This document shows, piece after piece, positions 2,929 to 59,650 of a stretch of 64,000 bases of DNA. The notes under the pieces were generated by a model, which saw only the letters and a list, made by a program, of their open reading frames with translations, was not told where the DNA came from and made no database searches. Both the position numbers and the translations under genes were made by a program. Each line of letters begins with the position of its first letter. Positions within the stretch are counted from its first letter, which is position 1. Source of the stretch: a virus (lineage: Duplodnaviria > Heunggongvirae > Uroviricota > Caudoviricetes); IMG/VR virus record IMGVR_UViG_3300045988_149737; one strand, 5' to 3'.

Positions 2929-3247
2929 TTGTACCCCCTGATGGCCTTTGATGTAGGAAGACCATCGCTCTCCTCTATTCAAACTGAGTTTTCGACTCAA
3001 AGATTACTTTAAAGGGCTATAGCCCATTATGTATGCGTCAACAAATTATGTACGGCATAACACCGTACTTGTAATATAGAGGTCATTGTTACTTTTTTCA
3101 ACAGACAAATACAAGCTATGATTGCCAATTGTTAATCACAACCTACCATTTAACCTTTACACCGCAGCCGTAGGCATTTAGGCTATATCACATATAAGAA
3201 AACAAGTTGTTTCAGACGATAATTATATACGCAAAGGGAACTCTCCA

Positions 3248-3916
3248 ATGACCAAGATCTTTGTGGTTGGCGGCACAAAGGGCGGGCCTGGCAAATCCAC
3301 CGTTGCCCAGCAAATTGCCGTTTGCCTGAAAGTCAAAAAGAAGAAGAAGGTTTATATTACCGATATAGATATTCAGCGCACGACAACGAGCTGGTGTGAA
3401 GACCGTCGACAGAACGAAGACCTTGAGCTGATTCCTTTTGCATACGTTCAGGATGACATCATTAAGCACCTAAAATCGCTTCAGGGTAGAGCTGAGTTTG
3501 TAGTGGTAGATGCTGGTGGCTTCGACTCCGAAATTCAGCGACAAGCGATGCTGATGGCTGACGTTATCATTATCCCGCTGCGTCCTAAGCGTCGTGATTT
3601 GAAATCTCTGCGTGACATCGATCCTATTATCGACAATGTTCGTAATGTAAACGATAAAGTGAAGGTCCGCGCGGTCATGAACCAGTGCCCGGCTTTGCCA
3701 TCACAAGTGTCTCGCATTCTGGCGGCTAAAGAGATTGTTGAGACGTTTGGAATCGAGTCTGCGCCAGTCAATCTATATAACCGCAACGTCTATGATGATG
3801 CGGAAGAGTCTGGTCGTTCTATCTTTGAAATGACCGGTAGCGAGCGCGACAAAAAGGCGGAAGCCGAGTTTGAAGAATTTGTAGATTATCTGTTGAGTCT
3901 GGAGGAAGAAGAATAA
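3248..3916 (+). CDS. parA: ParA-like partition ATPase (small, type Ib)
   Basis: Deviant Walker A GGTKGGPGKST; 222 aa; followed by overlapping small DNA-binding protein gene. Confidence 0.8.
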   Translation: MTKIFVVGGTKGGPGKSTVAQQIAVCLKVKKKKKVYITDIDIQRTTTSWCEDRRQNEDLELIPFAYVQDDIIKHLKSLQGRAEFVVVDAGGFDSEIQRQAMLMADVIIIPLRPKRRDLKSLRDIDPIIDNVRNVNDKVKVRAVMNQCPALPSQVSRILAAKEIVETFGIESAPVNLYNRNVYDDAEESGRSIFEMTGSERDKKAEAEFEEFVDYLLSLEEEE

Positions 3917-4275
3917 TGTCCATGAAAATGGGTGACCTAGCAAAGCGCAAAGAGCCTGATGCACCGGCTAAGAACACAACTCCTTTGCGCCAACCAGTCA
4001 GACCACAGGGACGCCCGACTCGTGGCAAAGAGAAAATTAAAAGCCGCACAATGTCACTGGAGGACGAATACTTCGAACTGCTGGAGATGATGAAGTTCAT
4101 CCCTCGCTTCGAGAAGTTCACTCGTTCTGACGTGATTCGAGCAGCCATTTTCCATCTGGCAGAGAAGTCACCGCAGGAAATCGAGGACATCGTGAAATTG
4201 AATGAGGCGATCACCGCTGCCGATGTCACGATGCGTACCGATGAAATCAAACGAGAGTTGATGAAGAAAGGTTAA
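3916..4275 (+). CDS. small centromere-binding partition protein (ParG/ParB-like, RHH-type)
   Basis: ATG overlaps parA stop (TAATG); basic N-terminus, helical C-terminal half. Confidence 0.55.
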   Translation: MSMKMGDLAKRKEPDAPAKNTTPLRQPVRPQGRPTRGKEKIKSRTMSLEDEYFELLEMMKFIPRFEKFTRSDVIRAAIFHLAEKSPQEIEDIVKLNEAITAADVTMRTDEIKRELMKKG

Positions 4276-4279
4276 AAAT

Positions 4280-4312
4280 CATGCATTGGCGCGTACATTG
4301 CGCCAATGCATG
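4280..4312. terminator. GC-rich perfect hairpin between convergent genes (bidirectional terminator candidate)
   Basis: CATGCATTGGCGC (4280-4292) / GCGCCAATGCATG (4300-4312), 13-bp perfect inverted repeat, 7-nt loop. Confidence 0.5.
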
Positions 4313-4327
4313 ACTACAGTGTCAGCT

Positions 4328-5095
4328 TTATGCCGCGCTAACACTATGTTCAGTCCTAACCACCCCAACCTTCACAAAAGGGCTACCGTAGCTTGGTGGC
4401 TTCTTGATTAATTTGCCTACATACAGTTTTCTAATATGCTCATCGGCTATTCTGCCAACAAATTCATAACGTTTTGTGTCGGGGCCAAGAGCTATATCCC
4501 TTGTAAAGTACTGCTGAGAACCGGCTTTGACCCAGCATTCAATCTGATAAACTTCCATTATCAGCCCACCATATGTAGCGTAGGCATATTTGAGATTCTC
4601 GTCTCTTGGAACCTTTGCCCATACGCCACGCGTAGCTTCATATAATGCCAGAGCGGACATTCCTGACTTGTAGGTGCTGTTTAGCAGGAAGGCAAGACCG
4701 GCGTGCTCAGGAGCAATTTCAGTTTCCTCTTGCAGCACTAAGTGATGGTAGGCGTCCAGTGATATTCTGCCCATCATGGAACCACTTCCTCGAACCTTAT
4801 TCGTAAGCTCTCCGACCCCCATAAGGTCGATGCATGTCGCCTCAACAAGTTTGGCTGTGGTTTCATCCATACCATGACGAAGAATATCTATGCCTAATTT
4901 TTTATTAGCCAAAAGTTCTTTGATCCGCATGGATTTGGGAGAGTCATCGGGATACTTGATGTGATCGAGACAACGAGTCGATTTGCCTTTTCCTATGTAA
5001 AACGGTCTTTTCATCTTGTCTTCTGTATCATAGAGACAGTAAACATAGTATTTAGCCTTATCCAATGATCTCGCGTATACCGATAAATCGTCCAT
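4328..5095 (-). CDS. GIY-YIG nuclease-domain protein
   Basis: N-terminal YVYCLYD...PFYIGKGKSTRCLDH matches GIY-(x10)-YIG spacing; isolated minus-strand gene. Confidence 0.5.
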   Translation of the reverse strand: MDDLSVYARSLDKAKYYVYCLYDTEDKMKRPFYIGKGKSTRCLDHIKYPDDSPKSMRIKELLANKKLGIDILRHGMDETTAKLVEATCIDLMGVGELTNKVRGSGSMMGRISLDAYHHLVLQEETEIAPEHAGLAFLLNSTYKSGMSALALYEATRGVWAKVPRDENLKYAYATYGGLIMEVYQIECWVKAGSQQYFTRDIALGPDTKRYEFVGRIADEHIRKLYVGKLIKKPPSYGSPFVKVGVVRTEHSVSAA

Positions 5096-58385: not shown

Positions 58386-58446
58386 TAGGTAAATACTTAC
58401 CTAATTTGTGTAAGAATGTAGTTACTAAACGATAAGAGAAAAACAC

Positions 58447-59151
58447 ATGAACAACCTCCAGTTAGAGCATTTTAACGTCACAGGCCATTCTGATTTTCCT
58501 TTCAAGTTTACATTGAAAGGTTATGCAGAGGATGCGGTAGGCCAGATCATTATTGATAAAGGCATCGTTAAGTTTGAGGGGGATTTTGATGAATCCGCGA
58601 AAACATTCATAGACTTCGTTGCCAAACGTTGGAGCGAGCAATGGAAAAACCTGGAAAAGCGCGCCAATGAGTTTGATCGGTTCATGGATGCAATGGATAC
58701 AGCAAAAGAGGCTCTTGATGCCGGGACTCCGTTAGATCTGGAGTCACTTTTCAACGGCGAAGTGGCCTCTGCGATGTTTGCCACCATGTTCGCGGGTGAG
58801 TTCGTCCGCAGCGGTGCCAAAAACTACCTTGAGCTGGATTACAACGTCCCTGCAATTGGCGATTTCGTCGTTACCATCCAACGCAAAGAAGGTAAGACGC
58901 CAGGTGAACGCGTCGCAGAGCTTGAGGCCGTTGTGGATCAGCGTAACGGAGAGTGTGACCGTTTGATCAACGAGCTTCATGCACTTCGGGAAGAAAGAAT
59001 ATGCGCGGGTAGTAATACACGTAATGCAGCGGATATCTACTTCCAGTTAGTTGAGGAATGCCAGATTCCACCAGGTGGCTCTCTTGTCGATTACGTAAGA
59101 CATTTAATGGCGGAAGTTAGCTCCAGCCATAAAGATGGTGAGGTGCGCTGA
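58447..59151 (+). CDS. hypothetical protein
   Basis: 234 aa; AAGAGAAAAACACATG context. Confidence 0.45.
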   Translation: MNNLQLEHFNVTGHSDFPFKFTLKGYAEDAVGQIIIDKGIVKFEGDFDESAKTFIDFVAKRWSEQWKNLEKRANEFDRFMDAMDTAKEALDAGTPLDLESLFNGEVASAMFATMFAGEFVRSGAKNYLELDYNVPAIGDFVVTIQRKEGKTPGERVAELEAVVDQRNGECDRLINELHALREERICAGSNTRNAADIYFQLVEECQIPPGGSLVDYVRHLMAEVSSSHKDGEVR

Positions 59152-59531
59152 TGTTTGGCATTGACGCACAGCGTATAGCCGCTTTTGCAAAAAGCCCTCT
59201 TGATAATCCCTTGTCTCGTAGTGAGCAAATGGAGTTGGCAAGGCTTTTTCTTCACATTCAAAAACAGGCAGACATTTTCAATAACATGCCTAATCAACCT
59301 ATTCTGGATGGTCACATCCAGATGGTCATTAACAGTCATGAGAAAGGCTGGGCTGCAATCGTCCCCAGCACAATTACATACAAGTTGGCGAAAGAGGTTC
59401 AAGAGTTTCGAAAAGCCAGTGTCGAATCTGAGTCTACCAAAGCCGCAATAAACACTCTTATTCGCATGGGATTCACATGGAACGGTGGAGCCTACTGGCA
59501 AGCACCTCACCCCATTTTATCCGGCAATTAG
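59151..59531 (+). CDS. hypothetical protein
   Basis: 126 aa; start overlaps previous stop. Confidence 0.4.
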   Translation: MFGIDAQRIAAFAKSPLDNPLSRSEQMELARLFLHIQKQADIFNNMPNQPILDGHIQMVINSHEKGWAAIVPSTITYKLAKEVQEFRKASVESESTKAAINTLIRMGFTWNGGAYWQAPHPILSGN

Positions 59532-59561
59532 ACGCTACAAATCCTTCTGCGTGAATAAATA

Positions 59562-59595
59562 AAGGCCATAAGTTGTGGCCTTAAATAAATTGTTT
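59562..59595 (+). terminator. stem-loop/terminator
   Basis: AAGGCCAtaagttgTGGCCTT followed by AT-rich T-run. Confidence 0.55.
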
Positions 59596-59650
59596 TCTGC
59601 CTTTTCTTATTTGTGAAAATAACCACAACTAGAAAACAACGGAGTTAAGA

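Follow-up and report, generated by a model that had tools for sequence, protein, structure and literature searches.

A dispersed palindromic motif downstream of predicted promoters in SSU5-like phage-plasmids: a probable repressor operator

Dispersed sites in described phages and plasmids

The virus sequence IMGVR_UViG_3300045988_149737, analysed at its full length of 64,000 nucleotides (nt) and referred to here as the window, contains a palindromic motif that recurs in front of its genes. Judged by sequence, the window is an Escherichia coli SSU5-like phage-plasmid: over the first 20 kb it shares 97-98% identity with phage Cyrano (OV696614, pLF82) and with E. coli plasmids of approximately 100-120 kb, compared to about 81% with Salmonella phage SSU5. 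SSU5-like elements, among them pHCM2 of S. Typhi, pMT1 of Y. pestis, pLF82/Cyrano and many E. coli and Klebsiella plasmids, some with resistance genes, are common in clinical Enterobacterales. In the searchable literature, a 2026 phage-plasmid promoter preprint aside, no description of their regulatory wiring or of the motif was found (the motif string retrieved nothing, SSU5 no paper on regulation).

The C1 repressor of P1 is said, with reference to Lobocka et al. in 2004 and to earlier work, to act through scattered operators of 17 base pairs (bp) on many operons, including that of the DnaB-type helicase ban. The element described here resembles P1 as a plasmid-prophage with one type of 17-bp candidate operator distributed over the genome and placed at many operons, a DnaB-type helicase among them. 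On the other hand, P1 operators are asymmetric (ATTGCTCTAATAAATTT) and overlap promoter hexamers, whereas the motif is a 6+1+6 palindrome that follows the -10 hexamer and coexists with a second dispersed palindrome resembling a true immunity operator. The stoperators of mycobacteriophages L5 and Bxb1 (gp71), about 20-30 repressor sites per genome, occupy short gaps between genes, for the most part in a single orientation relative to transcription, and are thought to stop elongation. Many intergenic copies with an orientation biased along transcription are also found here, but a stoperator is an asymmetric 13-mer to which a monomer binds independently of promoters, while the motif is symmetric and locked to -10 hexamers. 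Two further proteins, KorB of RK2 (13-bp palindrome TTTAGCSGCTAAA at 12 sites) and omega of pSM19035 (heptad repeats), are both regulator and partition protein. As in these systems, one site lies at the promoter of the par operon and others at replication and maintenance promoters, and the binder would be the partner of a ParA protein, which here is a candidate; the 6+1+6 geometry is also that of RK2 KorB. By contrast, the candidate is no ParB/KorB homologue, its membership in the ribbon-helix-helix (RHH) proteins is unconfirmed, and the targets are phage replication and lytic genes.

The Sop system of N15 has reportedly been linked to late gene expression, a finding ascribed to Ravin et al. 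in 2008. In this linear phage-plasmid, the centromere sites used by SopB (IR1-4) lie at four separate places (PMC7205306). Both elements are phage-plasmids with single palindromes at several positions of the genome; by contrast, N15 uses a ParB/SopB family protein and four sites of another sequence, and here approximately 20 sites are locked to promoters. ParG of TP228, a small protein with a flexible basic N-terminal tail encoded after a small ParA-type ATPase, represses the par operon from sites just upstream; it binds short boxes with AT-rich spacers, and in the centromere parH and the operator OF 8-20 tetramer boxes are arrayed in one place (PMC3130281). The motif can be read in a similar way, as AAAAC-AAnTT-GTTTT, but it occurs as a single palindrome at parA and as about 20 single copies elsewhere.

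Distribution, promoter register and conservation of the motif

With at most one mismatch, the pattern AAACAAnTTGTTT / AAACAANTTGTTT matched the window at eight positions (3200, 6131, 17682, 32366, 44097, 54313, 55042 and 59583), compared to 0.46 expected and a maximum of two in 100 shuffles. The 17-mer GAAAACAANTTGTTTAA, with up to three mismatches, gave ten matches versus 1.3 expected; the precise start positions of the copies are 3198, 6129, 17680, 32364, 44095, 54311, 55040 and 59581. The recurrence of a palindrome before plus-strand genes, as described in the initial annotation, was thus confirmed. Two of the positions given there (3198 and 44095) are exact, while four (6126, 32362, 54308 and 55038) lie 2-3 nt early and include a conserved CTA/TAA. 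The partial copy placed at 59626 corresponds to the left half-site CTAGAAAACAA with its G at 59632; the copy before the CobT-like gene and the inverted copy at 59581 had been overlooked. The copies and the associated promoter element are as follows.

3198..3214, plus strand: motif copy GAAAACAAGTTGTTTCA, 33 nt 5' of the parA ATG (3248), with the most deviant right arm
6129..6145, plus strand: motif copy GAAAACAATTTGTTTAA, 17 nt 5' of the ATG of a DnaB-like helicase gene (6163)
17680..17696, minus strand: motif copy, read GAAAACAAATTATTTAC on that strand, 17 nt before the ATG of a CobT-like gene (17714)
32364..32380, plus strand: motif copy GAAAACAATTTGTTTAA, 14 nt 5' of the ATG of a DUF7238 gene (32395), a terminator-like hairpin lying upstream
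44095..44111, plus strand: motif copy GATAACAACTTGTTTAA, 23 nt 5' of the nrdB ATG (44135)
54311..54327, plus strand: motif copy GAAAACAACTTGTTTTA, 22 nt 5' of the ATG of a TerB/TciA-like gene (54350)
55040..55056, plus strand: motif copy GAAAACAACTTGTTTAA, 16 nt 5' of the ATG (55073) of a 189-amino-acid (aa) protein with no assigned function
59581..59597, minus strand: inverted upstream copy (TTAAATAAATTGTTTTC on the plus strand), centred near -38 relative to the promoter of the gene whose ATG is at 59651, exactly 51 bp from the downstream site
59612..59620, plus strand: predicted extended -10 element TGtGAAAAT of the promoter of this gene, in the family-wide register
59632..59639, plus strand: left half-site GAAAACAA before the ATG at 59651, with the Shine-Dalgarno sequence cGGAG in place of the right arm

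The distance from the start of the motif to the ATG is 31-50 nt, and in six of the seven gene-proximal copies of the window the GAAAAC arm is on the upstream side. Seven of the eight copies lie in intergenic DNA, which makes up 10.3% of the window according to crude calls of open reading frames (ORFs); the eighth overlaps an ORF of 56 aa that is not called in the Cyrano annotation, where this stretch is left intergenic. A similar frequency inside coding regions, named in the initial annotation as a finding that would speak against the motif, was not observed, as no copy is located within a real gene. An extended start context, AAAGGAAAAACACATG, which had been described together with the motif, is likewise real (ten matches with up to three mismatches versus 1.0 expected). 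It does not belong to the motif, however: since genes that lack the motif (19905, 26522, 32863, 37089 and 58434) have it to the same extent, it represents a general ribosome-site context. At 7572-7587 the conserved start context, AAAAGAAAAACACATG, points to ATG 7585 as the start of the primase gene, for which the mechanical ORF call begins with GTG 7513.

The position of the motif relative to promoters was analysed on 66 distinct instances of it gathered from relatives, of which 32 non-redundant ones were kept, each preceding a ribosome site. A -10-like hexamer was defined by A at position 2, T at position 6 and at least four of six matches. In 14 of the 32 family sites such a hexamer ends exactly 12 nt before the G of the motif, compared to 1.1 expected per position, and a T at -12 is present in 30 of them and in all eight window sites. 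Many hexamers are part of an extended -10 element (TGnGATAAT), e.g. TGCGATAAT, TGAGATAAT and TGGTATTAT. The layout is therefore -10 hexamer, 11 nt, motif and ribosome site, the latter's Shine-Dalgarno sequence following the motif end by 0-25 nt; in many relatives the motif runs directly into it (...TTGTTTAAGGAG...). On the seven window sites alone, a relaxed position weight matrix yielded mixed registers, and only with the non-redundant family sites did the register become clear. Predicted promoters in the window include TTTACA-17-TAGGCT upstream of the 3198 copy and TTGCTC-16-CACAAT, which ends 12 nt upstream of the 55040 copy; the copy at 44095 is preceded by a terminator-like hairpin that itself lies 3' of nrdA. 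Because a sigma-70 -10 hexamer lies 11 nt upstream, the motif is situated downstream of it, over the early transcribed region. Taking the start approximately 7 nt after the hexamer, it would span approximately +6 to +22, centred near +14.

At several promoters a second, inverted copy, TTAAACAAnTTGTTTTC, ends 17 nt before the -10 hexamer. The centres of the two copies are 51 bp apart in every case (59581/59632 in the window, 93112/93163 in Cyrano and at least four non-redundant relatives), and the GAAAAC ends of both point to the promoter core. Upstream copies held at exactly this inverted spacing fit recognition of DNA and not an RNA element.

The Cyrano genome as a whole contains approximately 18 motif sites; two of them form a tandem pair before terS, and others belong to six successive promoters at 93-98.5 kb, a region outside the window; pMT1 of Y. 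pestis has kept six. In diverged relatives GAAAACAA-N-TTGTTTAA is constant while flanks and central base vary. Upstream of the helicase gene, three diverged lineages show ...ACTAATACTA, TTTAGTATTA or TTTACGATTA, followed by GAAAACAA(T/A/C)TTGTTTAA and by AAAACAAAGG or GCACCAAAGG..., so that the 8+8 arms and nothing else are invariant. The same holds for the parA promoters of diverged lineages, and the 3198 copy in the promoter of the operon for ParA and a 119-aa protein is retained with its left flank in every lineage examined (loci L214 and L215, whose sequences end too early, were left out of the comparison of motif persistence). Even in a Klebsiella lineage with unrelated helicase N-terminus and flanks, and in a lineage with a split gene for the alpha subunit of DNA polymerase III (Pol III), the motif copy is still perfect. 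Orthologues of the CobT site in pMT1 and in a Klebsiella-type locus read GAAAACAAATTGTTTTA. Tandem direct copies 25 bp apart occur both before terS and in the more distant relative L103, there in the gap between two Pol III alpha ORFs. This relative encodes Pol III alpha as two ORFs of 677 aa and approximately 386 aa (gap region 2150-2230). In Cyrano (L003 55-135, 5' of terS), a GC-rich hairpin and a T-run (AGAGCGCATGGACGCGCTCTGTGTGTTTT) lie between this tandem pair, spaced by 25 bp, and the nearby terS ATG; placed where the packaging and structural operon begins, they resemble a terminator or attenuator. A scan of a viral contig collection with the exact pattern retrieved mostly SSU5-like contigs and scattered chance matches, and a second phage family with the motif was not found in it. 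The most fitting classification of the motif set is that of a new regulon of dispersed operators within a family of phage-plasmids.

Expression of the motif-bearing genes was taken from RNA-seq data of an LF82 lysogen (PMC9928086, S1 Table; lysogen condition, median 9.8). CYRAN_101 (7.5), CYRAN_105 (12.8), CYRAN_106 (12.2), CYRAN_110 (6.7) and CYRAN_111 (25.5) are at or near background, and their promoters carry the motif and a near-consensus extended -10 element. The other motif genes show values of 21 (helicase), 7.8 (cobT), 5.7 (CYRAN_58), 12.9 (nrdB), 7.0 (tciA) and 7.1 (CYRAN_87), and the parA operon is the sole motif-bearing unit that is on (50, 89 and 55; PMC9928086). Since near-consensus promoters would normally be constitutive, a factor present in the lysogen presumably holds them down.

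A conserved dyad-symmetric site of a size typical of operators (12-20 bp) was found in the 6+1+6 core within the 17-mer, and on predicted promoters it occupies a fixed position relative to the hexamers. As a palindrome with a free centre, conserved on transcribed and untranscribed DNA and located just downstream of a host-type -10 hexamer, the motif is probably a repressor operator acting at the level of DNA. The assumption of a site for a dimeric DNA-binding protein, made in the initial annotation, agrees with the dyad and its free central base, the footprint, the fixed promoter register and the inverted partners at 51 bp. The alternative offered with it, a phage-specific promoter element, is not supported because the sigma-70 -10 hexamer, often extended, sits upstream and the motif covers the early transcribed region. 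The fullest explanation, to which we lean without considering it settled, is that of a dispersed operator through which a repressor encoded by the element keeps sets of genes off in the plasmid state. Such an operator would lie just 3' of the transcription start at about 20 separate sigma-70 promoters of SSU5-like phage-plasmids, and a conserved protein, binding the palindrome as a dimer or a pair of dimers, would block RNA polymerase. Given the sites between co-directional genes, the bound protein probably also stops read-through from upstream. In the plasmid-prophage state this would shut the helicase gene, those for CobT/CobS/Pol III, nrdB, tciA, many small genes and the region before terS, while the parA operon, also motif-bearing, would stay moderately expressed.

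Several observations weigh against this explanation. A strict sigma-70 scan of positions 1-20000 detected no promoter at the motif sites, and several window hexamers are weak and devoid of the key A at position 2 (CGCAAT, AGCAAT, GGCTAT). The best predicted promoter of the helicase gene, TTGATC-16-TAGTAT/AATACT, ends 1-3 nt 5' of the motif and thus apparently in a different register. The promoters at the motif sites are consensus predictions from which the transcription starts were derived, and the silence in the lysogen is equally compatible with a missing activator. The base-precise layout (-10 hexamer, 11 nt, operator, ribosome site) makes the circuit of lysogeny and plasmid maintenance directly testable, and the map of the motif improves the annotation of promoters and start codons throughout the family.

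Candidate binding proteins and alternative explanations

A second dispersed palindrome, ATARGTAA-N4-TTACYTAT, is unrelated to the motif (GAAAACAAnTTGTTTAA). At least 17 intergenic copies are present in the window, where they alternate with the motif along the genome. They lie upstream of the holin gene, cobS, the gene of a gp32-like single-stranded DNA-binding protein, nrdA, thyX and other plus-strand genes and, where promoters are clear, in the spacer of good sigma-70 promoters (TTGATA-17-TAATAT for nrdA, TTTACA-18-TATATA for the holin gene).

597, 5347, 8781, 9652, 12134, 17180, 19840, 26431, 31217, 32843, 33170: starts of 20-mer copies of the second palindrome
36970, 41654, 46364, 51199, 53415, 58385: starts of the remaining 20-mer copies
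16765..17151, minus strand: gene of an XRE-type helix-turn-helix (HTH) repressor, a rival candidate for binding the motif
3916..4275, plus strand: gene of the 119-aa protein, translationally coupled to that of a ParF-type ParA (3248..3916), the best candidate for binding the motif

The promoter region of the HTH repressor gene contains the second palindrome (17180-17199) and half-sites of it but no copy of the motif. In the Klebsiella lineage L216/L221 the repressor is strongly diverged, with the recognition helix FPNVNTLSIIKAGK instead of YKNANNLSLIKSGK and an unrelated C-terminal half, and the second palindrome is shifted to ATATGTAA-N4-TTACATAT; by contrast, the motif persists at parA (TAGTAT-N11-GAAAACAACATGTTTAC) and at the helicase gene. 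Since repressor and second palindrome changed together while the motif stayed, the second palindrome would belong to the HTH repressor, and the motif probably needs another conserved binder. The HTH repressor most likely binds the second palindrome, which is probably the operator of the immunity repressor, and the two separate sets of dispersed operators predict two regulators. Promoters appear to switch between the operator classes in evolution, as the CobT promoter of L221 carries the second palindrome (16902-16921) at the place where the window has the motif.

That the motif is nevertheless an operator of the HTH repressor, which would then serve two operator classes or leave the other palindrome to another protein, is unlikely. 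In P1 one prophage repressor does act on many dispersed operators. The HTH repressor is the only clearly DNA-binding regulator expressed in the lysogen that was recognised by the profile libraries, and its recognition helix hardly varies among the lineages that share an invariant motif; its gene reached a value of 96 in the lysogen (PMC9928086). Against this stand the second palindrome in its own promoter region and the joint divergence in L221. Moreover, the centres of the inner half-sites AAACAA and TTGTTT, approximately 7 bp apart, would be tight for an HTH dimer.

The best candidate is the 119-aa protein, the product of the second gene of the parA operon that bears the motif in its promoter; the corresponding value of 89 indicates that it is expressed in the lysogen (PMC9928086). 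Its ORF overlaps the stop codon of ParA, a protein of 222 aa whose orthologues match CbiA/MipZ/AAA_31. In the 119-aa protein, the N-terminal tail is basic and disordered and precedes an extended segment and two helices; in the extended segment R44 and S47 are invariant, and the other residues nearly so, down to approximately 30% overall identity. By position it is the putative centromere-binding partner of a type Ib partition system. Partner proteins of this type act as repressors of the operon that encodes them, from sites immediately 5' of it (PMC3130281), and a site upstream of an operon for a small Walker ParA and a small partner was found at 3198-3214. The protein may therefore bind the motif and autoregulate its synthesis through the 3198 copy, a suggestion that we regard as tentative though stronger than any other named candidate. 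As to the HTH and RHH proteins that the initial annotation had put forward for electrophoretic mobility-shift assays, the former is more likely to bind the second palindrome, and the ParA partner is the better choice.

The case for the 119-aa protein is weakened by the results of the fold analyses: every test for an RHH fold or any known family was negative or non-significant, and compared to ParG no similarity in sequence or fold was detected. Only one motif copy is present at 2950-3300, without a repeat array like those of the ParG and omega centromeres; instead of a short-repeat centromere beside the operon, the copies are dispersed. Furthermore, pMT1 has six motif sites yet lacks this ParA and its partner. 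As this loss is probably a recent deletion, pMT1 is uninformative as a natural knockout. The 119-aa family does not extend beyond SSU5-like elements (25 clusters at 90% identity, 18 at 50%, six species loci), and because the motif persists throughout this narrow family, there is no informative change of specificity that could be used for covariation. It is conceivable, though rather doubtful, that the ParA partner uses the approximately 20 dispersed palindromes both as a distributed centromere and as silencing operators. Occupancy by the partition protein of promoters for replication, nucleotide metabolism, small early genes and packaging would then help to gate the switch from plasmid to lytic growth, and a rising copy number would titrate this occupancy, beside the SOS-linked HTH repressor with its separate operator set. 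Should the partition protein prove to be the binder, plasmid and phage control would clearly be fused in a single circuit. A role of the copies purely as centromere-like partition sites for the ParA system, without any part in transcription, is by comparison very improbable. One copy does lie upstream of parA, where type Ib centromere-operators are located, and there is no other repeat array near this gene, but such a role leaves unexplained why about 20 promoters keep the motif in fixed register with -10 hexamers and ribosome sites, and pMT1 has kept its motif sites with a ParAB system of the P1 type.

The predicted transcription of the motif also permits a reading in which it acts in the mRNA, where it would make up nt 6-22 of very short leaders and end 0-25 nt 5' of the Shine-Dalgarno sequence, either as a translational operator for an RNA-binding protein or as an A/U-rich translation enhancer. 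The C-to-T variants at 17680 and 59581 would retain G-U pairing on the plus strand, the element family encodes a protein of the FljA type (Flag1_repress), a family that binds a 5' leader, and the leader of T7 gene 10, a known translation enhancer, contains a similar CTAGAAATAATTTTGTTTAAC. We nonetheless consider this reading improbable. The leaders of the seven window sites reached minimum free energies of -0.6 to -5.2 kcal/mol with z-scores of -1.4 to +0.5, no better than shuffled sequences, and a 6+1+6 palindrome is unable to pair fully as a hairpin. The inverted copies at about -38 are outside the leader and are held at exactly 51 bp, tandem pairs with a 25-bp spacing are present 5' of terS and in L103, and symmetry around a free central base is the mark of DNA recognition by a dimer. 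The T7 leader itself (TCTAGAAATAATTTTGTTTAACTTTAAGAAGGAG, T7 22925-22968, sequence confirmed) resembles the layout of CTAG, motif and Shine-Dalgarno sequence, e.g. ACTAGTAAATAATTTGTTTTCATAACAAAGGA, as compared at 6126-6165 and 17677-17716 of the window, with a palindrome of different spacing (6+2+6); this likeness is probably coincidental among A/T-rich leaders. More improbable still is a phage-specific promoter or activator site for a phage sigma factor, activator or polymerase. For such a site speak the conservation as a unit of the block of approximately 34 bp from the -10 hexamer to the motif end, its strict orientation before genes and often after terminators, and the poor -10 hexamers of the main window sites, which possibly need help. 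The upstream hexamers, however, are plainly of the sigma-70 type, often TGnGATAAT, and to our knowledge activators do not work from a site centred at +14. A gene for a phage RNA polymerase or sigma factor was named neither in the record's annotation nor in profile searches with Pfam and PHROGs, which covered part of the ORFs. The T4 MotA box and the late promoters of P1 were rejected on geometry, as the ATG is too close for a -10 hexamer downstream of the motif. Among the sites of host transcription factors (Fis, IHF, PhoP, ArcA, Zur, MntR, PurR, the GntR family, RelB and others), none is known to match the motif.

Gene map and further observations

The gene map of the window was taken from the Cyrano annotation. 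The plus strand carries nearly all genes, in the order tail-fibre gene end, lysis genes, toxin-antitoxin pair and parA, followed by genes for replication, recombination and nucleotide metabolism and, at the end of the window, a LexA-controlled S24-peptidase gene. A tRNA cluster at 12902-13555 comprises four genes (Asn-GTT, Tyr-GTA, Thr-TGT and Ser-TGA). Sequences resembling a LexA box (CTGT-N8-ACAG) in AT-rich context are located at 15623-15638, before the integrase gene (15667), and at 63519-63534, before the S24-peptidase (UmuD/HumD-like) gene (63553). By itself the pattern shows no enrichment (two found, 0.9 expected); both occurrences are intergenic and adjacent to promoters.

CYRAN_114 (L004 4781-5302, minus strand), located outside the window, is annotated as 'transcriptional regulator'. 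It matches Pfam Flag1_repress (FljA, the phase-1 flagellin repressor) with E = 1e-80 and shows a weak Hfq-like match at the C-terminus. The target of FljA is the fliC mRNA leader. CYRAN_114 may be a moron that silences host flagellin or an RNA-binding regulator of the element.

Ciprofloxacin induces Cyrano (PMC9928086). Two segments of the window, 4328-5095 (minus strand) and 14465-15493, are unlike Cyrano, where CYRAN_30 and CYRAN_43 are their counterparts; CYRAN_43 is very highly expressed in the lysogen (723-fold over background; PMC9928086). Both segments are accessory cargo slots beside the partition and integrase modules. Anti-defence genes of the Tad2-like and Acb2/Tad1-like kinds lie at 12451-13238 of the L221 locus. 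A long inverted repeat, CCTGCTTCTGTATATAT ... ATATATACGGAAGCAGG, is present twice, at 5207-5261 and 51845-51903, and its right arm ATATATACGGAAGCAGGCT also occurs approximately 70 nt 5' of the motif copies before terS in relatives; the repeat could be a site for a late promoter or regulator, or an RNA hairpin.

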